A stretch of DNA of 64,000 bases from Actinomycetota bacterium (GCA_017856385.1 JAFMFD010000004.1:2828-66827); one strand, 5' to 3'; counted from the stretch's first letter, positions 1 to 13,957 are shown. Translations and numbers: made by a program. Notes: generated from the sequence alone by a model not told the origin.

Positions 1-161
1 GACAGCTCGGTGACTCCGATCTCGCGCCGGCCGTAGGAGAACTCCTTGAGCACGCGGGCCGCGTTCCGCACGCTCGACAGCGACGAGTGCTGCCGGCCCT
101 CGCCTCCCTCCCTGACCTCGGGTGGATCCGCTGACGGCTCCTCGCGCGCACCGGGGGTCAT
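1..161 (-). CDS. IclR-family transcriptional regulator, N-terminal part only (gene continues past the left edge)
   Basis: Own minus-strand translation from ATG at 161: MTPGAREEPSADPPEVREGGEGRQHSSLSSVRNAARVLKEFSYGRREIGVTELS. This fits the winged-helix N-terminus pattern of IclR regulators. There is an ATGA start/stop overlap (158-161) with the upstream ORF. It is absent from the ORF track because it is truncated. Confidence 0.55.
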   Translation of the reverse strand, partial: MTPGAREEPSADPPEVREGGEGRQHSSLSSVRNAARVLKEFSYGRREIGVTEL

Positions 162-862
162 CGGGGCTCCCGGGAGACGGCCAGCAGTCGTCGTCGTGAC
201 TGCTCCGGAGGTGTGGTGGACAGGTCCCAGCCGGCGAGCTGGTCGTCGCCCGGTGCGATGGCTCGCGCGAGGAGCAGGGTGGCGGCACCGAGGTCGGACA
301 GCTCGGCGGCGCGCATCTCGGCGACGAGCCGCTCCTGGCGGGGGAGCAGGTGGGTGAGGGCGTCGTAGTCGCGGACGGCTGCCGCATGCGTGTGGGCCAG
401 GCCGGTTCCCGCGTGCTGCGCGTGATGGGCGGTCAGGCCCCCGCCCGGCGGCACCGTCAGGTGGTAGACGATCGTGCTCAGCCCCAGGAGCCCCCGGATC
501 CGCTCTCCGGAGCCGGGTGAGGTGTCGTCCAGCATGCCCAGGGCGGGCAGCACGACCGGGTCGAAGAAGCGCACGACCCACTCCAGGTCCCCCTCGCGCC
601 CGTCGATCACGACCTCGGGGCCGGCAGGTGCGGGCAGGGCGTCGGTCGTCCCGACCACGTGCAGGTTGCGGGCCCCGACAGCGGCGACCGTGAAGCGGCC
701 GGCGCGCAGGAGGGGCAGCCGGGCGCGGTCCCCGGGGGTCAGTCCGACGATGGCGTCGAGGTAGGCGCGGTGGAGCGAGGCGATGTAGGCGGCCATCGCC
801 GCGCGCATCCCGGCCGGGTCACCTGCAGGCCCTCCCCGCTCCGTGGGCACCTCGGGCTCCAT
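158..862 (-). CDS. hypothetical protein, family not recognised; apparently co-transcribed with the IclR gene
   Basis: ORF 158..961 trimmed to the ATG at 862 (MEPEVPTERGG...). Composition is coding-like. Its stop overlaps the IclR start. I recognise no motif. Start is uncertain; MRAAMAAY is an alternative. Confidence 0.45.
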   Translation of the reverse strand: MEPEVPTERGGPAGDPAGMRAAMAAYIASLHRAYLDAIVGLTPGDRARLPLLRAGRFTVAAVGARNLHVVGTTDALPAPAGPEVVIDGREGDLEWVVRFFDPVVLPALGMLDDTSPGSGERIRGLLGLSTIVYHLTVPPGGGLTAHHAQHAGTGLAHTHAAAVRDYDALTHLLPRQERLVAEMRAAELSDLGAATLLLARAIAPGDDQLAGWDLSTTPPEQSRRRLLAVSREPR

Positions 863-1005: not shown

Positions 1006-1914
1006 ATGGGAATCCTGCGCTTGGGCCACGTCGACGTCACGGTGACCGATCTGGACCTGGCCACGGCGTACTACACCGAGGTGATCGGGCTGCTCGAGGT
1101 CGAGCGCGACGACGACTCGGTCTACCTCAAGTGCTGGGACGAGCCCAACCACCACTCCCTCCGGCTCATCTACGGCCCGCGGGTCGGCTTCGACCAGATG
1201 TCCTTCAAGGTCGAGCGGGAGTCCGACCTCGACGACTTCGAGAACGCCGTCCAGCGCTACGGGTTCCCCGTCCGCCGCGTCTCCAAGGGCGAGTCGGTGG
1301 GCCAGGGGGAGTCGATCCGGTTCGAGACGCCCTCGGGCCAGCAGATGGAACTGGTCCACGACGTCGAGATGACCGGCCGCGCGACGGCACGCATCAACCC
1401 TGCTCCCTTCGTGGAGGGACTGCGGGGCATCGCACCTCCACGGCTGGACCACGTGCTGGTGACCGCGGAGGAGGTGGGCGACTCGGCGCAGTTCTACCAG
1501 GACGTGTTCGGGTTCCGCCTGACCGAGCAGCTCATCGACGGGGCTGGGCACCAGATGGCGGTCTGGATGGAGACGTCCGGCCGCCCGCACGACCTCGCCA
1601 TCGTGTCGGGTCGCAACGGCGGCCTGCACCACTTCGCGTGGTGGCTCGACGACTGGGATCACGTGCGCAAGTCGGCCGACATCCTCGCCTACAACGGGAT
1701 CCAGATCGACGTCGGTCCGACGCGCCACGGGATCACCCGCGGCAACACCATCTACTTCTTCGACCCACTGGGCACGCGCAACGAGGTGTTCACCGGCGGC
1801 TATAAGCCCGATCCGGACTTCCCGACCATCACCTGGACCGAGGACAACATCGGCCGGGCCGTCTTCTACTACGAGGGTGAAGTGAACCAGCGCTTCATGA
1901 CGGTGCACACATGA
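1006..1914 (+). CDS. type I extradiol dioxygenase (catechol 2,3-dioxygenase-like, VOC superfamily), paralog 1
   Basis: ORF 913..1914 trimmed to ATG 1006, preceded by GGAGGAG at 997-1003. Two-domain VOC layout with LDHVLV, GLHHFAWW and FFDPLGTRNEVF, the His/His/Glu positions typical of Fe(II) extradiol enzymes. Confidence 0.85.
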   Translation: MGILRLGHVDVTVTDLDLATAYYTEVIGLLEVERDDDSVYLKCWDEPNHHSLRLIYGPRVGFDQMSFKVERESDLDDFENAVQRYGFPVRRVSKGESVGQGESIRFETPSGQQMELVHDVEMTGRATARINPAPFVEGLRGIAPPRLDHVLVTAEEVGDSAQFYQDVFGFRLTEQLIDGAGHQMAVWMETSGRPHDLAIVSGRNGGLHHFAWWLDDWDHVRKSADILAYNGIQIDVGPTRHGITRGNTIYFFDPLGTRNEVFTGGYKPDPDFPTITWTEDNIGRAVFYYEGEVNQRFMTVHT

Positions 1915-2822
1915 GCATCCTGAGACTTTCCCATGTCGAGATCCGCGTGCCGGATCTCGAGTTGGCCACCGCGTACTACACCGAGGTGGTCGGCATGTAC
2001 GAGACCGCCCGGGAGCCCGACCGCGTCTTCCTGAAGTGCTGGGACGAGCACCAGCACCACTCGCTCATCCTCACGTTCGCGCCCACCTACGGCCTGAACC
2101 ACATGGGCTGGAAGGTCTCCGAGCGTGCAGACCTCGACCACTACGCCGGTCGCCTCGAGGCCGCGGGCGTCGATGTCGTGCGCTTCGCCGCCGGCGAGAT
2201 AGGACCCGGACACGGCGAGGCCATCCGCTTCACGATGCCGAGCGGCCATGTGATGGAGCTCGTCCACGGCATGGAGCAGGTCGGGAACCTGCTGCCCAAC
2301 ACCAACCCCCCGCCGCGGCCCATCGGCCTCGTGGGATTCGCGCCGCCGCGCCTGGACCACGTGTTCCTCACCTGCGAGGACGTCGCGGGCAACACGTCCT
2401 TCCTCGTCGACGTGCTCGACTTCCACCTGACGGAGCAGATCCTCGGTGACGACGGGTTCCAGGTGGCGACGTGGCTGGAGCACTCGCACCACAGCCACGA
2501 CATCGCCCTGGTCACCGGGCAGGACCGGGGCCTGCACCACTTCGCGTGGTGGGTCGACGACTGGAATGCGATCCGTGAGGTAGCCGACGTTCTCGCGTAC
2601 CACGGTGTGCGGATCGAGACGAACCCGACGCGGCACGGTGCCACGCGTGGCCACTGCATCTACTTCTTCGACCCGGCGGGCAACCGCAACGAGGCGTTCA
2701 CCGGTGGCTACTGGGTCGACCCGGACGAGCCGCCCGTCACGTGGACCGAGGCGGAGATGGGGCGAGCCATCTTCTACTACGACGGCGTCGTGAACCAGCG
2801 ATTCCTGACCGTGCACAGCTGA
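1911..2822 (+). CDS. type I extradiol dioxygenase (catechol 2,3-dioxygenase-like), paralog 2
   Basis: ATGA overlap with paralog 1 at 1911-1914. Motifs LDHVFL, GLHHFAWW and FFDPAGNRNEAF. Collinear with paralog 1 over the full length. Confidence 0.85.
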   Translation: MSILRLSHVEIRVPDLELATAYYTEVVGMYETAREPDRVFLKCWDEHQHHSLILTFAPTYGLNHMGWKVSERADLDHYAGRLEAAGVDVVRFAAGEIGPGHGEAIRFTMPSGHVMELVHGMEQVGNLLPNTNPPPRPIGLVGFAPPRLDHVFLTCEDVAGNTSFLVDVLDFHLTEQILGDDGFQVATWLEHSHHSHDIALVTGQDRGLHHFAWWVDDWNAIREVADVLAYHGVRIETNPTRHGATRGHCIYFFDPAGNRNEAFTGGYWVDPDEPPVTWTEAEMGRAIFYYDGVVNQRFLTVHS

Positions 2823-2828
2823 GAGGCG

Positions 2829-3950
2829 ATGATGACGACATCCGAGCTCCAGCCGCCGGCCGCGCTCCCGCGGACCGAGCGCAACGATGCTCCGGCCTAC
2901 CTGCAGCGCTACCTCGACCGCGAGGGCCGCGGTGGCAAGCCGCACGAGGTGGACGATCGCGGTGGCGAGTCGGATGCGCCGCTCTACCTGCGCCGCTTCC
3001 GCGACCGGCGTACGGGAGCGAACCCGCTCGAGCAGCCCGTGCCCGAGTGGCAGGGCTCGGACCTCGGCGTCACGCAGGCCCGCGCCCGCCAGACGAAGTC
3101 CAAGGAGATCGTGCCGCCCGACACCGCTGCCGCCGGACCCAGGACGGTCACGCAGGTGCACATCATCCGGCATGGCGAGACCCAGGGGTACAGCACCGAG
3201 AGCGGGCTCACCCCGCTCGGCAGCTGGCAGGCCCACCGTCGCGGCTTCGACATCAGCAAGGGCGTGCGTGAGGGCGAGCGCATCCGGATCGTGTGCGCGG
3301 AGACCAACCGCGCCCGGCAGACCGCGGAGCAGATCCGCAAGGGCCTGCTCGACGGCCTGACCATGTGGGGACGCTCGGCGGACGTCTCGGCCGAGATCGA
3401 GGGCATGGAGGAGTTCCGCAACTTCCAGGTCTGGACCCCGGAGGGACTGCGCGACGTCACGGGGGCCTTCCGGCTCTACCAGAAGGAGATGGAGCGGTAC
3501 GAGCGGGTGGCGCACGGTGATCGCCCGCTGTGGCTGGTCGAGATCGACCGGTTCTGGCGGACCCAGCAGGGCGGCGGCGACCCCATCACGTACTGGACGC
3601 AGATACCGATGCTGTGCTTCGAGCCGCCGTCGGCCACCATCCGCCGATTCTGGGCCGGCATCCGTCGTGTGCGCGAGGGGACCCCCGGCGACCGCATCAT
3701 CGTCGCGACGCACTCCGGGCCCATCCGCGTCTTCGCGATGGCCGCCCACGGGTACGACCCTGGCGAGCCCTACAACACCGAGGAGGTCATCGTGAAGCTC
3801 CTCGAGGGTGACACCGGGGCCTTCCTGGCGTACCGGAACCGGGTCTCCGAGGTGCAGGTGCCGGCGCTGGACGAGCTGCCGGACTGGTGGGAGGGGCTGT
3901 CGGGCAGCGCTGTGCCCTCATCCCTGAGGGCGAAGGAGGTCTCGGCATGA
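2829..3950 (+). CDS. histidine phosphatase superfamily protein with an N-terminal extension of about 110 aa
   Basis: IIRHGETQGY (RHG catalytic motif) at about aa 112-121 and VATHSGPIR later in the protein. The N-terminal extension carries an internal repeat, APAYLQRYLDR / APLYLRRFRDR. Confidence 0.75.
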   Translation: MMTTSELQPPAALPRTERNDAPAYLQRYLDREGRGGKPHEVDDRGGESDAPLYLRRFRDRRTGANPLEQPVPEWQGSDLGVTQARARQTKSKEIVPPDTAAAGPRTVTQVHIIRHGETQGYSTESGLTPLGSWQAHRRGFDISKGVREGERIRIVCAETNRARQTAEQIRKGLLDGLTMWGRSADVSAEIEGMEEFRNFQVWTPEGLRDVTGAFRLYQKEMERYERVAHGDRPLWLVEIDRFWRTQQGGGDPITYWTQIPMLCFEPPSATIRRFWAGIRRVREGTPGDRIIVATHSGPIRVFAMAAHGYDPGEPYNTEEVIVKLLEGDTGAFLAYRNRVSEVQVPALDELPDWWEGLSGSAVPSSLRAKEVSA

Positions 3951-5026
3951 GCGGCTACGTGATGTGGTTCGAGGGCTACTGGGAGGGCCTGAAGCCGGAG
4001 GTCGGCGGCAAGGCGGCGAGCCTGGGGGAGATGACCGGCGCCGGCCTGCCGGTGCCACCCGGCTTCGCCCTGACCACGGCGGCGTTCCGGGACTCGCGTG
4101 ATGCGGCCGACCTCGACGCGACGCTCGCGCGACTGCTGCACGGCCTCGACACTGACGACACGGGCATGGTCGCGGACCGCTGCGGGCAGATCCGCGAGCA
4201 GATCACCCGGATGCCGGTCCCTGCGAACGTGGAGCAGTCGCTGCGGGACGCCTACGCGGAACTGTGCCGCCGCTGCGGGGTGTCCGACGTCCCCGTCGCC
4301 GTCCGGTCGTCGGCGACCAGCGAGGACTCCCCGGACGCCTCCTTCGCAGGCGAGCACGACACATACCTGTGGGTGCGCGGTGCAGATGATGTCGTGGACG
4401 CCGTGCGGCGCTGCTGGGCGTCCCTGTTCACCGATCGCGCCACCTGCTACCGCGTCGAGATGGGCTACGAGCACCGCACGGTGGAGATGAGCGTGGTGAT
4501 CCAGAAGATGGTCCGCCCGGTGTCCGCCGGGGTGGCCTTCACGCTCAACCCGTCGGACGGCGACCGTTCGACGATCGCCATCGACTCGGCCTGGGGGTTC
4601 GGCGAGGGTGTCGTCTCCGGTGAAGTCACCCCTGACAACTTCCTCGTCGACAAGGTCCTGTACGAGATCACCCGGCGGCGTGTCTGCGCCAAGGAGGTCG
4701 AGTTCACGCTCGACGGCGGTGATCGCGTCGTCAAGAGGCCACTGGAGGGGGAGCGCGCATCCGCCGCATCCCTTACCGACGACCAGATCAAGGCCATCGC
4801 GCGCCTGGCCCGCACCGCCGAGCGGCACTACGGATGCCCGCAGGACATCGAGTGGGCCGTCGACGCCGACCTCGGACAGGACAGCGCGATCGTGCTGCTC
4901 CAGGCGCGGCCCGAGACGGTGTGGAGCAAGAAGTCGGCAGAAGCCCCGTCTCCCGCAGCCGGAGCAGACATGATGTCCAGCATCGTCTCCACGCTCATGA
5001 ACCCGCTGAACAGTCGCAAGAGCTAG
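3947..5026 (+). CDS. PEP/pyruvate-binding (PPDK N-terminal, ATP-grasp) domain protein; ATP-binding subunit of a split PEP-synthase-like kinase (PpsB-like)
   Basis: ORF 3887..5026 trimmed to ATG 3947 (ATGA overlap with the upstream stop). Motifs GGKAASLGEM, VAVRSSATSEDSPDASFAGEHDTYL, SVVIQKMV and QDIEWAVD are typical of the nucleotide-binding domain of PEP synthase and PPDK. Confidence 0.85.
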   Translation: MSGYVMWFEGYWEGLKPEVGGKAASLGEMTGAGLPVPPGFALTTAAFRDSRDAADLDATLARLLHGLDTDDTGMVADRCGQIREQITRMPVPANVEQSLRDAYAELCRRCGVSDVPVAVRSSATSEDSPDASFAGEHDTYLWVRGADDVVDAVRRCWASLFTDRATCYRVEMGYEHRTVEMSVVIQKMVRPVSAGVAFTLNPSDGDRSTIAIDSAWGFGEGVVSGEVTPDNFLVDKVLYEITRRRVCAKEVEFTLDGGDRVVKRPLEGERASAASLTDDQIKAIARLARTAERHYGCPQDIEWAVDADLGQDSAIVLLQARPETVWSKKSAEAPSPAAGADMMSSIVSTLMNPLNSRKS

Positions 5027-5087
5027 CACAGCACGAGCCCCAGCACGGTACGACCCACCACCAGTCACGACACTCAAGGGAGTTCGC

Positions 5088-6896
5088 ATGGCAGATCGGT
5101 TCCCCAGCCCCTTCGACATCGCGGCACCCGAGGGTGCCGAGGGTTGGCAGCAGCTGTACACCTATTCGTCGCTGTTCTCCGAGGGGCGACGCGCATATGA
5201 GGACTCCATGTTCTGGTTCCAGGACGGCGTCCACTGGCCCACGGCCCTGCGCCCCTGGGACGCGACGCTGTTCGAGTACGCGATCACATCGCTCTCGCAG
5301 TACAACACCCGGCACCTGCAGGTCCCGCCTGCCAACGGCATCGACTTCCGGATCCTGAACGGCTACGCCTACCTCACTCCTGTTCCGGCCCCGGAGGCCG
5401 ACATCGAGGCCCGCGTGGCGAACTTCATGGATCGTGCCGGCTTCTACTTCATGAACTGGAACGACCTGTACGACAAGTGGATGGTGAAGATCCGCGATCT
5501 CGTCAAGGAGCTCGAGACCATCGACTTCGACCCGCTGCCCGAGCTCGAGGACGCTGACGGCATCGTCAAGTCGGGTGCGGGCCTGGGATCCGGCTGGAAG
5601 ATCCAGGCCGACTACCACAAGCTCCTGGACCTCGCGCTCAAGCTGTGGCAGTACCACTTCGAGTTTCTCAACCTCGGCTATGCGGCCTACTTGGACTTCT
5701 TCGGCTTCTGCAAGCAGTCCTGGCCGAACATCCCGGACCTGGCGATCGCCAAGATGGTCGCCGGTGTCGAGGTCGACCTGTTCCGTCCGGACGAGGAGCT
5801 GAAGCGCCTTGCGCGCCTCGCCCTCGACTCGGGAATTGCCGAGGCGTTCGCCACGGGCGATGTGGACGCCACATGCCAGATCCTCAAGGGCAGCGACGCG
5901 GGCAACGCCTGGATCGCCTCGTTCCAGGAGTCCGCGGAGCCGTGGTTCAACTTCTCGACCGGCTCGGGCTTCTACCACTCCGACAAGATCTGGATCGAGA
6001 ACGTCGAGATCCCGTTCGACTTCATCAGCAACTACATCAGCAAGCTGCAGAAGGGCGAGGATCTCGCGCGGCCGATGGAGGCCATCCGGGCGGAGCGCGA
6101 CCGGATCGTCAACGAGTACGCCGAGCTGCTCCCCAGCGATGCGGACCGCGAGGCATTCCAGGGCAAGCTGGGCCTGGCCCGCGTGGTGTTCCCGTACGTC
6201 GAGAACCACAACTTCTACGTCGAGCACTGGAGCCATTCGGTGATCTGGCGGAAGATGCGCCAGCTGGGCGAGCTGTTCGTCAAGGAGGGCTTCTGGACCG
6301 AGGCGAACGACATCTTCTTCCTCAAGCGCACCGAGGTGGAGGACGCCCTGTTCGACTACTTCCACTCGTGGGCGACCCCGGCCCCCGCGGCCGGTCCCTC
6401 CCACTGGCCGCAGGAGATCGAGCGGCGCCGGAGGATCCACTCGGCCCTCGCCGCGTGGAAGCCGACGCCGGCGATGGGCGTGCCGCCGGAGGTCATCACC
6501 GAGCCGTTCACCGTCATGCTGTGGGGCATCACCACCGACAGCGTTAGCGCCTGGCTCGGCGGCGGAGCGGGCGAGGACGGCGAGCTGCGCGGCATGTCGG
6601 CCTCGCCGGGCGTCGTCGAGGGCCTGGCCCGGGTCATCTTCTCCCCGGACCAGATCAGCGAGGTCCAGGAGGGCGAGATCCTGGTCGCCCCCCTCACGGC
6701 ACCGTCGTGGGCGCCCATCTTCGGCAAGATCCAGGCGACCGTCACGGACACCGGCGGCATGATGAGCCACGCCGCCATCGTCTGCCGCGAGTACGGCCTC
6801 CCGGCTGTCACCGGTACCGGGTTTGCCACGTCGACGATCAAGACGGGCGACCGGATCCGCGTCGACGGCACCAACGGCGTGGTCACGCTGGTCTGA
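5088..6896 (+). CDS. PEP-utilising enzyme mobile (swivel His) domain protein with a large unassigned N-terminal domain (PpsA-like subunit)
   Basis: C-terminal SPGVVEGLARVI...EGEILVAPLTAPSWAPIF...TDTGGMMSHAAIVCREYGLPAVTG is the phosphohistidine swivel domain. The first roughly 480 aa match no family I recognise. AAGGGAG lies upstream of the ATG. Confidence 0.85.
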   Translation: MADRFPSPFDIAAPEGAEGWQQLYTYSSLFSEGRRAYEDSMFWFQDGVHWPTALRPWDATLFEYAITSLSQYNTRHLQVPPANGIDFRILNGYAYLTPVPAPEADIEARVANFMDRAGFYFMNWNDLYDKWMVKIRDLVKELETIDFDPLPELEDADGIVKSGAGLGSGWKIQADYHKLLDLALKLWQYHFEFLNLGYAAYLDFFGFCKQSWPNIPDLAIAKMVAGVEVDLFRPDEELKRLARLALDSGIAEAFATGDVDATCQILKGSDAGNAWIASFQESAEPWFNFSTGSGFYHSDKIWIENVEIPFDFISNYISKLQKGEDLARPMEAIRAERDRIVNEYAELLPSDADREAFQGKLGLARVVFPYVENHNFYVEHWSHSVIWRKMRQLGELFVKEGFWTEANDIFFLKRTEVEDALFDYFHSWATPAPAAGPSHWPQEIERRRRIHSALAAWKPTPAMGVPPEVITEPFTVMLWGITTDSVSAWLGGGAGEDGELRGMSASPGVVEGLARVIFSPDQISEVQEGEILVAPLTAPSWAPIFGKIQATVTDTGGMMSHAAIVCREYGLPAVTGTGFATSTIKTGDRIRVDGTNGVVTLV

Positions 6897-6916
6897 CCAC
6901 CGAGCACTGCACCATG

Positions 6917-6959
6917 GGTTCCGTCGGGCGGGAGGCACCAGGGCCCGCCCGACGGAACC
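6917..6959 (+). terminator. perfect 16-bp-stem hairpin (possible terminator, attenuator or processing site) between the kinase genes and the Rieske oxygenase
   Basis: ggttccgtcgggcggg (6917-6932) pairs with cccgcccgacggaacc (6944-6959), leaving an 11-nt loop. There is no T-tract. It sits 21 nt after the stop at 6896. Confidence 0.5.
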
Positions 6960-7032
6960 GCGTAGGGATCCAACAGCCTGCACGGCACTCACCACCGATC
7001 GATGCACCACCGCACCACGAGAGGACACCACG

Positions 7033-8292
7033 ATGCTGACCGTCGAACAGAACGAGGAGCTCACCCGCGTCGGACCGGGAACGCCCATGGGCGAGCTGCT
7101 GCGGCGCTACTGGTACCCCATCGCCTTCGAGCAGGACTTCGACACCGTCCCGACCAAGACGGTGCGTCTGCTGGGGGAGAACTGGACGCTGTTCAAGACG
7201 CCCAAGGGCGGTCGGTACGGCATCGCGGCGGAGGCGTGCCCGCACCGCAATGCCTCCCTTACCTACGGCGTCGTTCACGAGGACGGCATCCGCTGCGGGT
7301 ACCACGGGTGGAAGTGGGACTTCGACGGCAACTGCGTCGAGCAGCCTGCCGAGGCGGACAACGAGAACTTCCGCACGCGCGTGAAGCAGAAGGTCGGCAA
7401 GGCCGAGGTGATGGGCGGCATGGTCTGGGTCTACGTCGGGCCGAGTCCCGCCCCGGAGCTGCCGCGCTTCGACGTCTTCGTCATGGACGGCGTCAAGGAC
7501 GTCGGCCACGCGACCCTGCCCTGCAACTGGCTCCAGATCATGGAGAACTCCGTGGATCCGCACCACGTCGAGTGGCTGCACGGCTACTACTTCGAGTTCC
7601 TCGGGCAGACGGAGGGGTTCGACGCACCCAAGGCCTTCCAGAAGAAGCACCTGCGCACCGGCTTCGAGGAGATGGAGTGGGGGATCCTCAAGAGGCGTGT
7701 GCTCGAGGGCGGCTCGGAGGAGAACGACGACTGGAAGGTCGGTCACCCGCTGGTGTTCCCCTTCTACATGCGCGTGGGCGGAGCGGGGATCGACCAGATG
7801 CAGATCCGGGTGCCCATCGACGACACCACCACGTGGAAGCTCTTCTACTCCAACCATGCACCCGAGGCGGGTGTCTGGGAGCCGCAGGACCGTCCGGTCG
7901 TCTACGAGTACCGGTGGCGCGATGAGCAGGGCCGCTTCATCACCGACTACATCGAGGGCCAGGACATCATGGCCTGGGTCTCGCAGGGCCCGATCACCGA
8001 TCGCACGCAGGAGCATCTCGGTCGCTCCGACGCGGGCGTGGCGATGCTGCGGAAGATGTTCAAGGAGAACATGAGGAAGGTCGCAGCCGGCGAGGATCCC
8101 CTGGGCACGGTCCGTGAGAAGCACGACATCATCCCGCTGCCCTGCGAGCGCGACAAGTTCGGTGCCGAGCGGGAGTTCGCCGAGGCCTTCATCACGATGG
8201 GCTCCATGCGGTACAGCCCCAACAAGCAGGCCCTGCTGGACCTCCACGCCGACGCCTGGGCACGCCGCGAGGGCGCCAAGGCGAAGGCGTGA
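7033..8292 (+). CDS. Rieske [2Fe-2S] non-heme iron oxygenase, alpha subunit only (phthalate-dioxygenase-like family)
   Basis: ORF 6823..8292 trimmed to ATG 7033 (GAGAGGA upstream). The N-terminus MLTVEQNEELTRVGPGTPMGELLRRYWYPI is typical of the family. Rieske motif CPHRNASL...CGYHGW. Mononuclear iron motif NSVDPHHVEWLH. No beta subunit gene is present. Confidence 0.85.
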   Translation: MLTVEQNEELTRVGPGTPMGELLRRYWYPIAFEQDFDTVPTKTVRLLGENWTLFKTPKGGRYGIAAEACPHRNASLTYGVVHEDGIRCGYHGWKWDFDGNCVEQPAEADNENFRTRVKQKVGKAEVMGGMVWVYVGPSPAPELPRFDVFVMDGVKDVGHATLPCNWLQIMENSVDPHHVEWLHGYYFEFLGQTEGFDAPKAFQKKHLRTGFEEMEWGILKRRVLEGGSEENDDWKVGHPLVFPFYMRVGGAGIDQMQIRVPIDDTTTWKLFYSNHAPEAGVWEPQDRPVVYEYRWRDEQGRFITDYIEGQDIMAWVSQGPITDRTQEHLGRSDAGVAMLRKMFKENMRKVAAGEDPLGTVREKHDIIPLPCERDKFGAEREFAEAFITMGSMRYSPNKQALLDLHADAWARREGAKAKA

Positions 8293-8546
8293 GCGTGATG
8301 CTCCCGCCTGACCCGCACCGGCTCCCGCCGCCCAGCGCGTGGTTCGCCAGGGATGCCGAGCGTCACCTGCTCGACCGTCCGCGGTTCTGTCCCATGTGCG
8401 GTGAGGGCCTCGACACCGACGGCGGCATCACAACGGAGTACTGGGCTGGCGACGCCCGGCACTTCATGACCTGGTGCGGGGAGTGCAGCTGGTTCGGCGA
8501 GGTCGTGCGCTTCGACATGGTCACGATCACCGAGGCGGAGCACTGA
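8289..8546 (+). CDS. small four-Cys (zinc-ribbon or rubredoxin-like) protein, 85 aa
   Basis: GTG start with a GTGA overlap on the Rieske stop (8289-8292). CPMCG and CGEC motifs lie 25 residues apart. Third codon positions are mostly G/C, as in neighbouring genes. I recognise no family. Confidence 0.5.
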   Translation: MSVMLPPDPHRLPPPSAWFARDAERHLLDRPRFCPMCGEGLDTDGGITTEYWAGDARHFMTWCGECSWFGEVVRFDMVTITEAEH

Positions 8547-9211
8547 CCCTGGGAGCGGGCGAGGCGAGGGCCCTGGTCCTCGATTTCGGAGGGCCCGTGC
8601 TCCTCACCCCGTTCGAGCTCCGCCATGTGGGCGAGCGCAACCTGGGGCTGGCCACTGGCAAGTTCGCCTGGACCGGTCCCTTCGATCCCGAGGCCGACGC
8701 CGACTGGCAGGCCTTCCAGTCCGGGGGCATGAACGAGCGCGAGTACTGGGCGCGGCGTGCCGAGGAGTTCAGCGCGCTGACCGGACAGCCCGCCACGATG
8801 CCGGCACTCTTCGCACCGATGTACGCCGGGACGGAAGACGAGCTCGTGCGGCCCGCCGCGCGTCGGCTCATCGCCGACGCCCGAGCCGCCGGCATCCCTG
8901 TCGGGGTGCTGACCAATGACCTGACCAGCTTCCACGATCGGGAGTGGCTCGAGCGCATGACGATCCTGCGGGAGTTCGACGTGATCGTGGACGGCCGGAC
9001 CGAGGGTGTCTACAAGCCCGACCCGGCGGCCTACCGGCTCATCGTCGAGCGGATGGGCATCGATCCGACGACGACCGTCTTCGTCGACGACCAGCCGGTC
9101 AACCTGCGCGGATCCGAGGCGGTCGGGCTGGTGCCCGTGCACCTGGATCCCACGGACCCCGGGCCAGGGTTTAGGTTGGCCCGGTCGCTGTTGGGCCTTT
9201 CACAGGAGTAG
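8474..9211 (+). CDS. HAD-superfamily hydrolase
   Basis: Motifs LVLDFGGPVL (motif I), GVLTND, YKPDPAAY and VFVDDQ. The start is unresolved. GTG 8474 would overlap the small ORF by 73 nt. In-frame CTG 8543/8549 or GTG 8576 are alternatives. Confidence 0.7.
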   Translation: MRGVQLVRRGRALRHGHDHRGGALTLGAGEARALVLDFGGPVLLTPFELRHVGERNLGLATGKFAWTGPFDPEADADWQAFQSGGMNEREYWARRAEEFSALTGQPATMPALFAPMYAGTEDELVRPAARRLIADARAAGIPVGVLTNDLTSFHDREWLERMTILREFDVIVDGRTEGVYKPDPAAYRLIVERMGIDPTTTVFVDDQPVNLRGSEAVGLVPVHLDPTDPGPGFRLARSLLGLSQE

Positions 9212-9213
9212 CC

Positions 9214-10557
9214 ATGCGCGTTGCCGTCGTCGGTTCGGGTCCCTCGGGCGTGTACGCGGCCGATGCCCTCGTGTCGCAGGACGAGATCCCCGTCGAGGTC
9301 GACATCATCGACCGGCTGCCGGTCCCGTTCGGGCTGGTCCGCTACGGCGTCGCCCCGGACCACCTCAGCATCCGCTCGGTCCGCGACACCCTGAACAAGG
9401 TGCTCGCCAAGCCCGGGGTGCGCTTCCTCGGCAATGTCGTCGTGGGCCAGGACGTCTCGACGGCGGAACTGCTCGCCCACTACGACGCCGTGGTGCTCAC
9501 CTACGGCGCCTCGCGCGACCGGCGCCTGGGCATCCCCGGTGAGGACCTCGACGGGAGCGTCGCGGCCACGGACTTCGTCGCGTGGTACTGCGGCCATCCC
9601 GACGCTGACCGTGAGCTCTTCGAGCGGCTGCTCCCCACGGCCACGTCCGCAGTGGTCGTGGGTGTCGGCAATGTCGCCGTGGACGTCACCCGCGTGCTGG
9701 CCAAGACGGTCGGCGAGCTCGACCACACAGACATGCCCCAGCACGTGCTGGACACCCTGGCGGCCTCGTCGATCACGGACGTGCACCTGCTCGGCAGGCG
9801 GGGTCCGGCCCAGGCGACCTTCACGACCAAGGAGCTCAAGGAGCTCGGCGAGCTGATCGACGCCGACGTGATCGTCCACCCCGACGAGATCGAACTGGAC
9901 GAGCCCAGCGCCGCACTCGCTGCCGAGGATCGCGCGGTGGGCAGGAACGTCGACGTGATCCGCGGATGGGCGGACCGACCGAATACGGGACGGGGCCGGC
10001 GCATCCATGTGCGGTTCCTGAGCCGACCGGTCGAACTGCTCGGCGATGACCGGGTTCGCAGCGTCGTCGTCGAGCGCACGCGACTGACACCGGATGGCGG
10101 CGTGGAGGGCACGGGCCAGATGGAGGAGATCGCGGCGGACCTGGTCGTCCGGTCGGTGGGATACCGCGGCACGCCGCTGGAGGGCCTGCCGTTCGACGAG
10201 CGCCGCAACGTGATCCCCCACGTCGACGGTCGGGTCGTCGACGGGGACTCCCCGGTGCGCGGCATGTACGTGGCTGGCTGGATCAAGCGCGGCCCGACCG
10301 GGATCATCGGAACCAACAAGAAGGACGCGGTCGGCACGGTCGAGTCGCTCCTGGCCGACGCGCGGGCCGGGGTGCTGCCGGCCCCCGCATCGCCCGAGCC
10401 CATCGAGGATCTGCTGGCATCACGCGGCGTGGACGTCGTCACGACCTCGGGGTGGGACGCCATCGATGCTGCCGAGCAGGCACTGGGCCAGCAGTCCGGA
10501 CGCGAGCGGACGACGATCCACGAGCGTGACCGCATGCTGGAGATCGCGCAAGGCTGA
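9214..10557 (+). CDS. fprA: FprA-type (adrenodoxin-reductase-like) NADPH:ferredoxin oxidoreductase
   Basis: MRVAVVGSGPSGVYAAD (FAD fold) and a second dinucleotide motif, VVVGVGNVAVDV. Length is 447 aa. The start lies 2 nt after the HAD stop. Confidence 0.8.
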   Translation: MRVAVVGSGPSGVYAADALVSQDEIPVEVDIIDRLPVPFGLVRYGVAPDHLSIRSVRDTLNKVLAKPGVRFLGNVVVGQDVSTAELLAHYDAVVLTYGASRDRRLGIPGEDLDGSVAATDFVAWYCGHPDADRELFERLLPTATSAVVVGVGNVAVDVTRVLAKTVGELDHTDMPQHVLDTLAASSITDVHLLGRRGPAQATFTTKELKELGELIDADVIVHPDEIELDEPSAALAAEDRAVGRNVDVIRGWADRPNTGRGRRIHVRFLSRPVELLGDDRVRSVVVERTRLTPDGGVEGTGQMEEIAADLVVRSVGYRGTPLEGLPFDERRNVIPHVDGRVVDGDSPVRGMYVAGWIKRGPTGIIGTNKKDAVGTVESLLADARAGVLPAPASPEPIEDLLASRGVDVVTTSGWDAIDAAEQALGQQSGRERTTIHERDRMLEIAQG

Positions 10558-10565
10558 CCCGGCGG

Positions 10566-11519
10566 CTAGTGCCAGTGCGCGGCGGCGGCGGGTGTTCCGG
10601 TCTCCCAGCGATGCACCGGCGTCGGCTCCGCTCCGCAGGACTCGGGCCGCCTCTGCTGACCGGTCACCGGTCGCACGGGCACCCGCCACGCGCGGCCGTC
10701 CGCATGCCGGACCTCCAGCTCTGACTCCACGGTCGGCACCGCCCACCCTGCGTCGACGGGCACGGCGCGGCCGTTGACGACGGCGAGCACGTCGAGGACG
10801 TCGGCACGGTCCTCGACCAGCGCCTGACGGACGGCGATCTCGGCGGCCTGCATCGGTGCGGGCAGTGCGGTCCGGCCACGCAACCGGTCGACGATCACGC
10901 GATCGGAGTCGAGCAGCGCGGCCGCCTCATCGACCGTCACGCGACCATGCACCATGCCGCTCGGCAGGCTCAGGGTCACCGGGGCGAAGCGGTGGCCGCC
11001 GAGGTGGCTGCACTCCCAGATCCGGGCGGACTGCTCGGGTGTGGCGAGGGCGGCCAGCGTGTCCAGCAGGCCCCGTCCGAGCCGGGCGCAGCAGGCGTCC
11101 CGTCGACCATGCGTGCAGACGAGCAGGACCGGCTCCCGGGTGCCCTGCTCGAGCGCGGGCAGCCGACCGGCGGCAAGGTCCGCCGGGTCGACACGTGCCA
11201 GGTCGCCGAGGTCGGCCAGGTCCGGCACCACCGCGCGTCGTGTGTAGGCCCCGCCCGGGGCGGTGCGCGCCACCAGCACGACGGTGCCGTGGGCGGCCTC
11301 GCGGCGCCCCGGCCGGCGCATGAGCACGACCTGCACGCCTGCGGCCTTGAACGCGAGCAGCAGTGCGCGGGTCGCATCGGGCAGGACGCTTTCCGCGATT
11401 GCATCGCGTCCCCATGGCCCGGGATGCTCCACCGCAACCCAGGTGAGGGCGTGCGGCGCGGTCCCGGCCAGCGGTTCGCCGATCTCCGCGGAGAGCAGTG
11501 AGCAGGGCTCGGTCACCAT
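10566..11519 (-). CDS. sucrase/ferredoxin-like (thioredoxin-like [2Fe-2S]) family protein
   Basis: ORF 10566..11648 trimmed to ATG 11519 (MVTEPCSLL). Motifs [17 protein letters not shown] and [13 protein letters not shown]. Its start overlaps the parC stop by 7 nt. Confidence 0.65.
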
Positions 11520-13957
11520 GTCCCCGCCACGGCATCGATAGGTGCGGTGCCGCCCGTTCCGGCACTGTCCCGACGCGGGTCGGGGTCGGGCAGCGCGACG
11601 GGGACGCCGGAGGCCGTCGCCGCACGTGCGGGCCCCGATCCGGCCCATGCAGTGATGATGCGGTCCTCACCGGACCGGAACCGGTGGCACCGGACCCCCG
11701 CGGTGCCCCGGCCCTTGCGGGGATACTCCAGCAGGGGCGTGACCTTGACGCTGCCCGCCTCGGTCCCGGGCAGGGCGGCGGAGGAGCCGGAGATGGTCAC
11801 GACCTGCGCGCGGTCGTCGGCCGGCACGGCAGCGAATGCCACGGCCACTGCGCCGGGGGACAGTCGGATCCCGGCCATGCCGGCGGCCGAGCGGCCCTGG
11901 GGGCGCACCGAGGCCGCGGGCATGCGCAGGAGCTGCGCATCGGACGTGATGAAGACCAGGTCGGCGGTCTCGGCAAGACCCTCGGGCAGGCGCGCGACTC
12001 CCACGACCTCGTCGCCGTCGTCCAGCCGGATGACCTCCCAGGCCGACTTGCTCTGCAGCGTCTCGGGCACGACCCGCTTGACGGTCCCCTGCGCTGTGCC
12101 GAGGGCGAGGGCACCCGCCTCGTCGAGCGTCGTGAGGCACAGCGGGCGCTCGCCCGAGGGCAGGTCGACGAACGCCCCCAGCGGCGCGCCGCCCGACAGG
12201 CTGGGTGTGCCGGCGACCGCAGGCAGGCCGGGCAGGTCGAGAACGGCGAGCCGGTGGATGCGTCCGGCGGACGTCACCAGGCCGATCTCGCCCTTGGTGG
12301 TGGCTGGCACCACGCTGACGACGACATCGTGCGAGGACCGCGAGTCCATCGTGGGCAGGGCGCTGCCGCTCGGCTCCGGCATCCGGGCGAGCAGGCCCGT
12401 GCTCGACATCAATACCAGGCAGGGCCCGTCGTCGACCTCGAGCGGCACTGCGGCGCTCACCGGGGCCGATCCCTCCATCAGCAGGGTGCGCCGCGGCGTG
12501 GCATGCGCCTGGGCGGCCTCACCGATCTCCCGCGACACCTGGGCGCGCAGTTCGGCCGGGTCGCCCAGGATGCGGGTCAGCTCGTCGATGGTCCTGCGCA
12601 GCTCGTCCTGCTCCGCTTCCAGCTCGATCCGTGAGAACTTCGTCAACCGCCGCAGCGGCATGTCGAGGATGTAGTTGGCCTGCTCCAGTGAGAGGTCGAA
12701 CACCGTCATGAGGCGCTCGCGAGCCTTGGCCGCATCGTCGGACTCCCGGATGAGCTGGATGACCTCGTCGATGTCGATGATCGCGACCAAGAGTCCCTCG
12801 ACGAGGTGCAGCCGCTCGCGGGCGCGGGTGCGTCGGTAGTCGCTGCGCCGGCGCACCACGTCGAGCCGGTGGTCCAGCCAGACCTGCAGAAGGGCGCGCA
12901 GCCCGAGCGTCTGGGGCTGACCGTCGACCAGGGCGACGGCGTTGATCGTGAAGGTGTCCTCCATCGGCGTGAGCCGGTACAGCTGCTCGAGGATCGCCTC
13001 GGCGTGGAAGCCGTTCTTGACCTCGATGACCAGGCGGAGGCCCGAGTCGCCATCCGTCAGGTCGATGACATCGGAGATGCCCTGGAGTCGTTTGGACTGG
13101 ACGGCGTCCTTGATCCGGTCGATCACCTTCTCCGGACCTATGCCGTACGGCAACTCTGTGACGACGATGCCGCGGCGACGCGCACTGGTCTGCTCGATGC
13201 GGGTCCGGGCGCGCACGCGGAACGTGCCGCGTCCGGACGCATAGGCGTCGCGGACACCGTCCAGTCCCACGATGACCCCGCCGCCGGGCAGGTCGGGGCC
13301 GGGGAGGAGGGTCATGAGGTCGGCGAGGGTGGCCTCCGGGTGCTCGAGCAGGTGCCGCGCCGCATTGAGGACCTCGCCTAGGTTGTGCGGTGCGAGTGAC
13401 GTGGCCATGCCCACCGCGATGCCAGCACCGCCGTTGACCAGCAGCTGGGGAATCGCCGCGGGCAGGACCTCGGGCTCGCGCTCCCGACCGTCGTAGTTGG
13501 GCACGAAGTCGACGACGTCCTCGTCGAGGCCTGCGGTCATGTCGAGTGCCGGCGGAGCGAGCCGCGCCTCGGTATAGCGCATCGCGGCAGGGCCGTCGTC
13601 AAGCGACCCGAAGTTGCCGTGGCCGTCAATCATCGGCAGGCGAAGGCTGAACGGCTGCGCCATCCGCACCAGTGCGTCGTAGATGGCGGAGTCGCCATGG
13701 GGGTGGAGCCGGCCCATGACCTCGCCGACCACGCGTGCGCTCTTGACGTGGCCGCGGTCCGGACGCAGGCCCATCTGAGCCATCTGGAACAGGATGCGAC
13801 GCTGGACAGGCTTCAGGCCGTCGCGGGCGTCGGGCAGGGCCCGTGAGTAGATGACCGAGTAGGCGTACTCCAGGAAGGATCCGCGCATCTCCGCGGCGAC
13901 GTCGATGTCGACGATCCGCCCGGGGCCCTCGGGCGGGGCGGGAGTGCGGCGAGGCAT
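11513..13957 (-). CDS. parC: DNA topoisomerase IV subunit A
   Basis: The 1327-aa ORF is trimmed to ATG 13957 ([20 protein letters not shown]...). Motifs [49 protein letters not shown] and AMRYTEARL (active-site Tyr region). The trimmed protein is 814 aa. Confidence 0.85.

Follow-up and report, generated by a model that had tools for sequence, protein, structure and literature searches.

A phthalate/LigXa-type Rieske oxygenase in an accessory aromatic-degradation island next to a resident fprA gene

Described electron-transfer systems and the oxygenase of the locus

Alpha-only Rieske oxygenases are supplied with electrons in different ways. In the class IA two-component system of phthalate dioxygenase, the reductase is of the phthalate-dioxygenase-reductase (PDR) type, with FNR-like domains and a plant-type [2Fe-2S] cluster. 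Mycobacterial FprA is encoded by a stand-alone gene and needs a separate ferredoxin; the known partners of FprA and of adrenodoxin reductase (AdR) are 3Fe-4S/7Fe or adrenodoxin-type ferredoxins feeding P450s. To our knowledge, no adrenodoxin-reductase-type reductase has been described for carbazole 1,9a-dioxygenase (CARDO; CarAa/CarAc/CarAd). CARDO uses a Rieske ferredoxin together with a reductase of either the FNR type (with plant-type [2Fe-2S]) or the glutathione-reductase (GR) type, and both genes are missing from some car clusters (PMC10992316). LigXa forms a three-component system with the ferredoxin LigXc and the ferredoxin reductase LigXd (PMC6874591). Variable or absent electron-transfer genes are already known for such related alpha-only oxygenases (PMC10992316, PMC6874591). 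Here, we describe a stretch of 64,000 nucleotides (G000:C130:2828-66827, referred to as the window; positions are counted from its first nucleotide), in which a gene for an alpha-only Rieske oxygenase is followed by genes for an 85-aa protein, a HAD hydrolase, and FprA. Our preferred reading, to which we assign a probability of about 55%, is a three-component oxygenase with a borrowed host reductase and an island-encoded ferredoxin, with fprA as a resident neighbor.

The window stems from an actinobacterial metagenome-assembled genome (MAG) of 2.6 Mb with a GC content of ~70%, 95.8% completeness, and 161 contigs. Its nearest relatives are labelled Candidatus Nanopelagicales. Pfam and PDB matches bore out the initial annotation of the four genes at 7033-10557, with the HAD hydrolase gene inserted between the oxygenase pair and the reductase gene. 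The statement that the cluster lacks a canonical reductase was also correct, as no FNR+Fer2 gene is present. The premise that alpha-only phthalate-family oxygenases normally work with a single reductase was too narrow, given that CARDO and LigXa each work with three components (PMC10992316, PMC6874591).

The oxygenase gene (7033-8292, plus strand) encodes a protein of 419 aa. In Pfam, it matches Rieske (E 3.5e-16), LigXa_C (E 2.9e-15), and weakly VanA_C; the catalytic domain is of the LigXa_C/VanA_C type and not of the Ring_hydroxyl_A type. The closest solved chains are of the phthalate-dioxygenase type, namely 7fjl (E 2.8e-46) and 7fhr (E 1.7e-44), the latter entitled "Putative phthalate 4,5-dioxygenase subunit alpha." Carbazole, dicamba, and ketosteroid oxygenases match far more weakly. 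The CxH...CxxH ligands of the Rieske cluster (C69, H71, C88, and H91) and the DPHH..H iron motif (D175, H177, H178, and H183) are invariant in the oxygenase alignment (A1). Across more than 80 islands, no Ring_hydroxyl_B-like gene for a beta subunit turned up. Judged from its sequence, the protein is an alpha-only Rieske non-haem iron oxygenase of the phthalate/LigXa-type subfamily.

CARDO resembles the system of the window in that an alpha-only oxygenase is fed via a small Rieske-type ferredoxin, and CarAa and CarAc are among the sequence matches. However, the window oxygenase is much nearer to phthalate-dioxygenase chains than to CarAa (E 1e-46 vs 1e-13), has a coupled zinc-ribbon protein, and sits in a dikinase/phosphatase operon. 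The class IA system of phthalate dioxygenase and PDR contains the closest solved oxygenase, and in islands of the sister clade a PDR-like reductase with FNR-like domains and a C-terminal Fer2 domain is encoded right behind the HAD gene. In contrast, the window has no PDR-type gene, and the islands have a separate Rieske ferredoxin that class IA does not need. With LigXa/LigXc/LigXd, the 5,5'-dehydrodivanillate O-demethylase of Sphingobium SYK-6, the oxygenase shares the LigXa_C domain, and JGI names its homologues after LigXa. This naming reflects domain similarity only, and the window operon differs by its dikinase, phosphatases, and extradiol dioxygenases.

The resident fprA gene and the island with its ferredoxin

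FprA: The fprA gene (9214-10557, plus strand) encodes an NADPH:ferredoxin reductase of the FprA/adrenodoxin-reductase type with 447 aa, as recognized by PDB matches. Similarity extends over the full length, with E 1.1e-107 to M. tuberculosis FprA (1lqt, residues 3-445) and E 5e-79 to bovine AdR (1cjc). The translation carries the dinucleotide-binding motifs GSGPSG and GVGNVAVD; the former and GVGNVA are shared with M. tuberculosis FprA and mitochondrial AdR. As in these enzymes, an Fe-S domain is missing, and Pfam gives Pyr_redox-type domains only. The protein is thus assigned to the FprA/adrenodoxin reductase family, and reduction of a small ferredoxin with NADPH is predicted. The difference from these enzymes lies in the acceptor, as a Rieske-type ferredoxin or a Rieske oxygenase in this role is undocumented in the literature searched.

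In the window genome, fprA is present as a sole copy. From the order, 151 genomes were sampled, 32 of which belong to the family of the window. All 32 family genomes have a single-copy FprA, and nine of them have the oxygenase. Across the whole sample, the oxygenase is found in 26 of 59 FprA-positive and in none of 92 FprA-negative genomes, a distribution that is confounded by kinship. In 21 of the 26 oxygenase-positive genomes, fprA is co-oriented with and adjacent to the oxygenase, at a distance of no more than 3.2 kb. Among the Nanopelagicales-labelled relatives, eight island contigs (L027, L040, L059, L065, L066, L070, L072, and L073; oxygenase 81-94% identical) are titled Bifidobacteriaceae, Bifidobacterium breve, or Rubrivirga in public records, which are probably taxonomy or binning errors.

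The neighborhood of fprA was fetched from twelve island-less genomes and from four genomes with the island elsewhere. In nine of the island-less genomes that were typed (L107, L109-L115, and L118), fprA forms a syntenic block with two further genes, here called TLF and parC, and the same block is found in all four genomes with the island elsewhere (G029, G136, G064, and G144). TLF (10566-11648, minus strand, maximal ORF) is a core gene for a sucrase/ferredoxin-like, Apd1/Aim32-type thioredoxin-like [2Fe-2S] protein (Pfam Suc_Fer-like, E 8e-23), convergent with fprA across an 8-nt gap. It contains CX8C at residue 178 and HLGGH at residue 215, in agreement with CX8C...HX3H, the ligand motif of the Apd1/Aim32 bis-His [2Fe-2S] proteins (PMC8482512). 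The right-flank anchor parC (11513-13957, minus strand; assigned by translation and synteny) is a core gene for a ParC/GyrA-like topoisomerase subunit A, which is 62-75% identical and syntenic beside TLF and fprA in island-less relatives. Across most of the order, the fprA-TLF pair remains together beside parC irrespective of the island and could be a housekeeping pair of a reductase and an Fe-S protein. As fprA is a single-copy core gene in a block with TLF and parC that is independent of the island, it is a resident housekeeping gene and not an island component.

Island: The Rieske oxygenase belongs to an accessory aromatic-degradation island of ~14 kb between two core genes, a beta-carbonic-anhydrase-like (beta-CA-like) gene and fprA. 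The genes that precede fprA in island-less relatives have their counterparts at the end of contig C24 in the window genome, the last one being the beta-CA-like gene (C24:19403-19939). In the relative G069, the C24 end and the C130 start are contiguous by synteny. Hence, the island is a clean ~14-kb insertion or deletion flanked by the beta-CA-like gene and fprA.

Ferredoxin: A gene for a Rieske-type ferredoxin of ~110-130 aa is located on C24 (G000:C24:19967-20353, minus strand; PDB and NCBIfam matches). The protein matches ferredoxin components of dioxygenases, with 2i7f first (E 2e-10) and then TodB, T4moC, BphF, and CarAc, as well as the NCBIfam models AndAb and HcaC. In nine of ten island genomes tested, three relocated islands included, an ortholog with 43-58% identity shares the contig with the oxygenase at a distance of 11-13 kb. 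The distance is likewise 11-13 kb in two genomes of an outgroup, which consists of five more distant islands (oxygenase 63-66% identical) and was used to root the oxygenase tree. In islands with a PDR-type reductase, the ferredoxin gene is found just past the IclR gene. Five island-less genomes gave weak paralog matches or none for the ferredoxin. The Rieske-type ferredoxin is therefore an island gene, which travels with the island, whereas fprA does not.

Position after the HAD gene: For the orthologous clusters, 80 genome loci with oxygenases of 74-94% identity were fetched, and their genes were typed by tblastn; the following row counts also include loci fetched beside these 80. After the HAD gene, fprA follows on the same strand in 39 rows (window included) and a PDR-type reductase in 24 rows, 21 of them non-redundant, from Nocardioides, Micromonospora, Nostocoides, Actinokineospora, and others. 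In 14 rows, the HAD gene is present without a reductase, and 12 rows are cut by the contig end. Carriers in culture include Longivirga aurantiaca CGMCC 4.7317 with an fprA-adjacent island (L077) as well as Nocardioides zhouii and N. litoris with PDR-type islands (L090 and L095). The cluster of the oxygenase P0051 (73% identical) is a fully syntenic operon, in which a 323-aa PDR-type reductase (NAD_binding_1 + Fer2) is encoded directly after the HAD gene. The five outgroup islands stop right after the small protein, with neither HAD nor reductase gene. A genome-wide FprA search covered three outgroup genomes (loci L026 and L130 lay outside it) and found no homolog in two of them.

In the rooted oxygenase tree, islands with a PDR-type reductase group in one clade (support 99) and reductase-less islands mostly in another (support 97), and the fprA-adjacent state comprises the remaining ingroup lineages. 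It looks as if the PDR-type reductase was gained once and was not ancestral. The best-supported view of these data is that a reductase is optional in the island, with none in most lineages and a single gain of PDR.

Relocated islands: The genus-mate G029 carries its island 1.4 Mb from fprA and with a PDR-type reductase (L122, G029:C1:1691500-1709500). Its oxygenase nests among those of Nocardioides and Micromonospora, and a lateral transfer of the whole island is suggested by this position. The relocated islands of G136, G144, and G064 have the HAD gene as their last gene, and the genes beyond it are unrelated (for example, DUF429, Fpg, cupin, MobA, and XdhC); fprA was left behind, and no reductase was carried along.

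HAD-fprA junction: In the window, the HAD stop codon and the ATG of fprA are separated by 2 nt, and AGGAG lies 5 nt upstream of the ATG. At 38 other loci, too, fprA comes after the HAD gene on the same strand; for 37 of these, the gap measures 2-107 nt, with values of 2-21 nt within the window's family and of 31-107 nt within a different one. A simple scan of 6800-11800 gave no promoter- or terminator-like site between the oxygenase gene and fprA. From this arrangement, fprA is probably co-transcribed with the island operon as its last cistron. As a control, we inspected fprA in places without the island. In four such genomes, island-less or with a relocated island, its distance to the preceding beta-CA-like gene is 2, 24, 24, and 27 nt, and in other genomes without the island at that place it is 101-1159 nt. 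Close packing against whichever gene precedes it is typical of fprA in these genomes. Tight HAD-fprA spacing was therefore dropped as a sign of partnership: the packing makes co-transcription probable, and does not speak for selection for partnership.

85-aa protein: The gene for the small protein (8289-8546, plus strand) starts with a GTG that overlaps the oxygenase stop codon as GTGA, and the two genes are translationally coupled. The protein contains CPMCG and CGEC; these CPxCG and CxxC knuckles are separated by 25 residues. All four Cys are invariant in 28 homologues including those of the outgroup islands (alignment A2), as are W, D, H, P, G, E, and R positions. An AlphaFold2 (AF2) model with a pLDDT of 84 consists of one helix and a three-stranded sheet. 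Its fold matches are the zinc ribbons Rpp21 and Rpb9, at a weak E of 0.07 or worse, and no rubredoxin is among the fold matches listed. Based on sequence, alignment, and model, we describe it as a zinc-ribbon-like four-Cys protein, and for this reason a beta subunit was rejected. As it accompanies the oxygenase in all island types (PDR-type, fprA-adjacent, and reductase-less), it looks like an obligate small subunit of the oxygenase.

HAD hydrolase: The next gene (8474-9211, plus strand, maximal ORF) encodes a hydrolase of the HAD-IA family (Pfam Hydrolase/HAD_2, NCBIfam HAD-SF-IA-v3), probably a phosphatase by these domain matches. Because no ATG, GTG, or TTG is available between the stop codon of the small gene (8546) and the DFGG motif (window 8474-8582), the start is either GTG at 8474 or 8483, with a 64-73-nt overlap with the small gene in another frame, or CTG at 8549. 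Between the zinc-ribbon gene and the HAD gene, an extra gene of ~240 aa is found in L120 (10039-10761) and at the same site in ~20 other loci; it is absent from the window and has no Pfam match. A hidden redox protein was considered for this ORF and rejected, as it is ~28% identical to the 2-oxopent-4-enoate hydratase/decarboxylase genes of the island, which makes it a paralog of these.

Electron supply of the oxygenase

No PDR-type reductase is encoded with the oxygenase, as it would be in class IA. A separate small Rieske ferredoxin accompanies the oxygenase genes, as in three-component systems (class IIB/III-like), but a dedicated reductase gene of the GR or FNR type does not, fprA being a core neighbor. 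In the window genome, no match to Reductase_C (PF14759) for a GR-type ferredoxin reductase was obtained. An ortholog of the island-type PDR was not found elsewhere in this genome either, the search giving only two PDR-like paralogs with 37-40% identity. The first paralog (C75:9428-10384 in L021, G000:C75:1-14651) lies with three Rieske alpha subunits of the Ring_hydroxyl_A type, a short-chain dehydrogenase/reductase, and an aldehyde dehydrogenase. The second, on C26 (L127, G000:C26:9000-21291), is beside a P450, and the one 3Fe-4S-type ferredoxin of the genome is nearby. In addition, the genome has one rubredoxin-domain match. A further locus (L128, G000:C63:34000-45000) contains an MTHFR-like gene, a pterin-binding methyltransferase, a RACo-type corrinoid activase with an N-terminal Fer2 domain, and DUF1638, and is by gene content a corrinoid-dependent methyl-transfer (O-demethylase-like) system in an apparently aerobic actinobacterium.

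In the three-component oxygenase that we favor, NAD(P)H would reduce a flavoprotein reductase of the host, which would then reduce the island Rieske ferredoxin. The ferredoxin in turn would reduce the Rieske center of the oxygenase and, subsequently, its mononuclear iron. Both the path and the choice of the reductase are what we infer. FprA is a plausible and, though unproven, the most plausible host donor because its gene directly follows the island genes and is almost certainly transcribed with them, a search for a GR-type reductase gave none, and the PDR-like paralogs sit in other clusters. FprA as a donor is thermodynamically unproblematic.

Several points weigh against this three-component assignment. 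The same ferredoxin is also encoded in PDR-type islands, together with a reductase bearing its own [2Fe-2S] cluster, and its role as obligatory carrier is therefore putative. The ferredoxin gene of the island terminates the meta-pathway operon, and its product could serve the extradiol dioxygenases instead, as do XylT-type ferredoxins, which are plant-type and not Rieske-type. The literature search found no paper linking FprA/adrenodoxin-reductase enzymes with Rieske oxygenases, and the reduction of a Rieske-type ferredoxin by FprA is hypothetical. Furthermore, a missing reductase gene could have escaped detection in a MAG of 95.8% completeness and 161 contigs, and the join of C24 and C130 rests on synteny in a relative and not on assembled sequence.

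A more specific proposal is that FprA is the physiological reductase, with electrons passing from NADPH via FprA and the island Rieske ferredoxin to the oxygenase. In this order, a freshwater group of Actinomycetota, the catabolic operon would have gained the housekeeping fprA as its last cistron, and a dedicated PDR-type reductase would be unnecessary. We put this forward tentatively, as a possible rather than a probable solution.

A rival to our preferred reading is the view that the adjacency is purely positional and FprA is uninvolved, so that a PDR-like reductase (C75:9428-10384 or that on C26) or another flavoprotein serves the oxygenase, with or without the island ferredoxin. The two PDR-like paralogs in the genome agree with this, as do the relocated islands that leave fprA behind, the reductase-less islands in genomes in which FprA was also not found, and the spacing of 2-27 nt between fprA and the beta-CA-like gene in genomes without the island at that place. 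CARDO gene clusters, too, share or omit reductases (PMC10992316). However, at 37-40% identity to the island-type PDR, each paralog is embedded in an oxygenase or P450 cluster of its own, and the co-oriented, adjacent fprA in most oxygenase-bearing genomes of the order sample is not accounted for. We consider an uninvolved FprA rather unlikely.

The initial annotation went further and took FprA as the operon's own redox partner in place of the canonical reductase, that is, as a selected and dedicated enzyme that replaced the non-orthologous PDR-type reductase and is retained in the operon because it is needed. One part of this stands: fprA occupies the exact slot of the PDR gene in the sister clade. 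The adjacency persists down to 76% identity of the oxygenase and 60% of FprA, the oxygenase of the order sample is confined to FprA-positive genomes (with the kinship bias mentioned above), and the genus-mate G029, with its island away from fprA, has a PDR instead. Yet fprA is a single-copy core gene and not an acquired operon component; it is retained in 23 of the 32 family genomes without the oxygenase, and its block with TLF and parC exists irrespective of the island. Among the relocated islands, one clade is devoid of any reductase, and the rooted tree makes PDR a single gain and not the ancestral state. The expected co-occurrence of FprA with the oxygenase clade was seen in all 26 oxygenase-positive genomes of the order sample, but it broke down in the outgroup, where the islands have no reductase and FprA was not found in two of the three genomes searched. 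The island relocates without fprA and carries the Rieske ferredoxin gene, and a dedicated FprA is improbable. The pairing of FprA and oxygenase is mostly positional because fprA is a resident housekeeping gene beside which the island landed. The other option of the initial annotation, a three-component chain with a ferredoxin encoded elsewhere, is the likely design, with the Rieske ferredoxin on the adjoining contig C24.

Finally, the 85-aa protein had been proposed as carrier from FprA, and a rubredoxin-like Fe(Cys)4 site would fit its invariant knuckles and its translational coupling to the oxygenase, but we rejected an FprA-specific rubredoxin and regard such a carrier as highly improbable, since the protein occurs unchanged in every island type including PDR-type and reductase-less ones, its model resembles zinc ribbons (a metal site still being possible), and the island Rieske ferredoxin already fills the carrier role.

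Gene content of the island and implications

The island operon begins upstream of the oxygenase with two tandem extradiol dioxygenases of the catechol 2,3-dioxygenase type (913-1914 and 1911-2822, plus strand), which score 369 and 366 bits with TIGR03211 at a cut-off of 320. They are followed on the plus strand by a protein of the histidine phosphatase superfamily (2829-3950; Pfam His_Phos_1), a PpsB/CreI/HpeI-like ATP-grasp dikinase subunit (3887-5026; Pfam PPDK_N, E 3.5e-112), and, directly upstream of the oxygenase, a PpsA/CreH/HpeH-like swivel-His subunit of a two-part aryl dikinase (5088-6896; Pfam PEP-utilizers; NCBIfam PRK08296, E 1e-255). The swivel-His dikinase gene is syntenic in all 80 or more loci. 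The divergent operon starts with a gene for a conserved 235-aa protein without Pfam match (158-862, minus strand), which is present in nearly all islands. Beyond this gene, the divergent arm continues to G000:C130:1 with an IclR regulator, a hydratase, an acetaldehyde dehydrogenase, and an aldolase. On contig C24, another hydratase/decarboxylase follows, with the Rieske-type ferredoxin at the far end. The enzyme genes of this arm belong to the lower part of the meta-cleavage pathway. A reduced island is found in the genus-mate G069 (L108, G069:C127:109500-127500, ~4300-9630), where IclR and both dikinase subunits (58-68% identical) lie directly upstream of fprA, and the extradiol dioxygenases, His-phosphatase, oxygenase, small protein, and HAD are lacking.

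Phosphorylation-initiated phenol catabolism has been described for CreHI/CreJEF/CreD of C. glutamicum, HpeHI of Rhodococcus, and PpsAB of Thauera (PMC12167813). The island shares with the Cre, Hpe, and Pps systems a two-part dikinase (PPDK_N and swivel-His subunits) near an oxygenase and phosphatases. It differs in the nature of the oxygenase, which is a Rieske enzyme in the window versus a P450 in Cre or a carboxylase in Hpe. The combination of dikinase, oxygenase, two phosphatases, and extradiol dioxygenases suggests that an aryl phosphate may be oxygenated en route to a catechol. A characterized pathway with a dikinase, a Rieske oxygenase, phosphatases, and extradiol dioxygenases was not found in the literature search.

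Taken by itself, the arrangement in the window is a positional curiosity with a plausible, if unproven, functional side. It also holds a lesson for annotation: the redox gene at the end of the operon is a fixed core gene, and the real carrier of the island is ~11 kb away, across a contig break. If FprA does feed the oxygenase, an adrenodoxin-reductase-type donor would be added to the known reductase classes of Rieske oxygenases, and a streamlined genome would save a gene by placing a catabolic island behind a housekeeping reductase. The more interesting object is the uncharacterized island itself, with its aryl dikinase, phosphatases, extradiol dioxygenases, and a Rieske oxygenase that appears to have an obligate zinc-ribbon partner.

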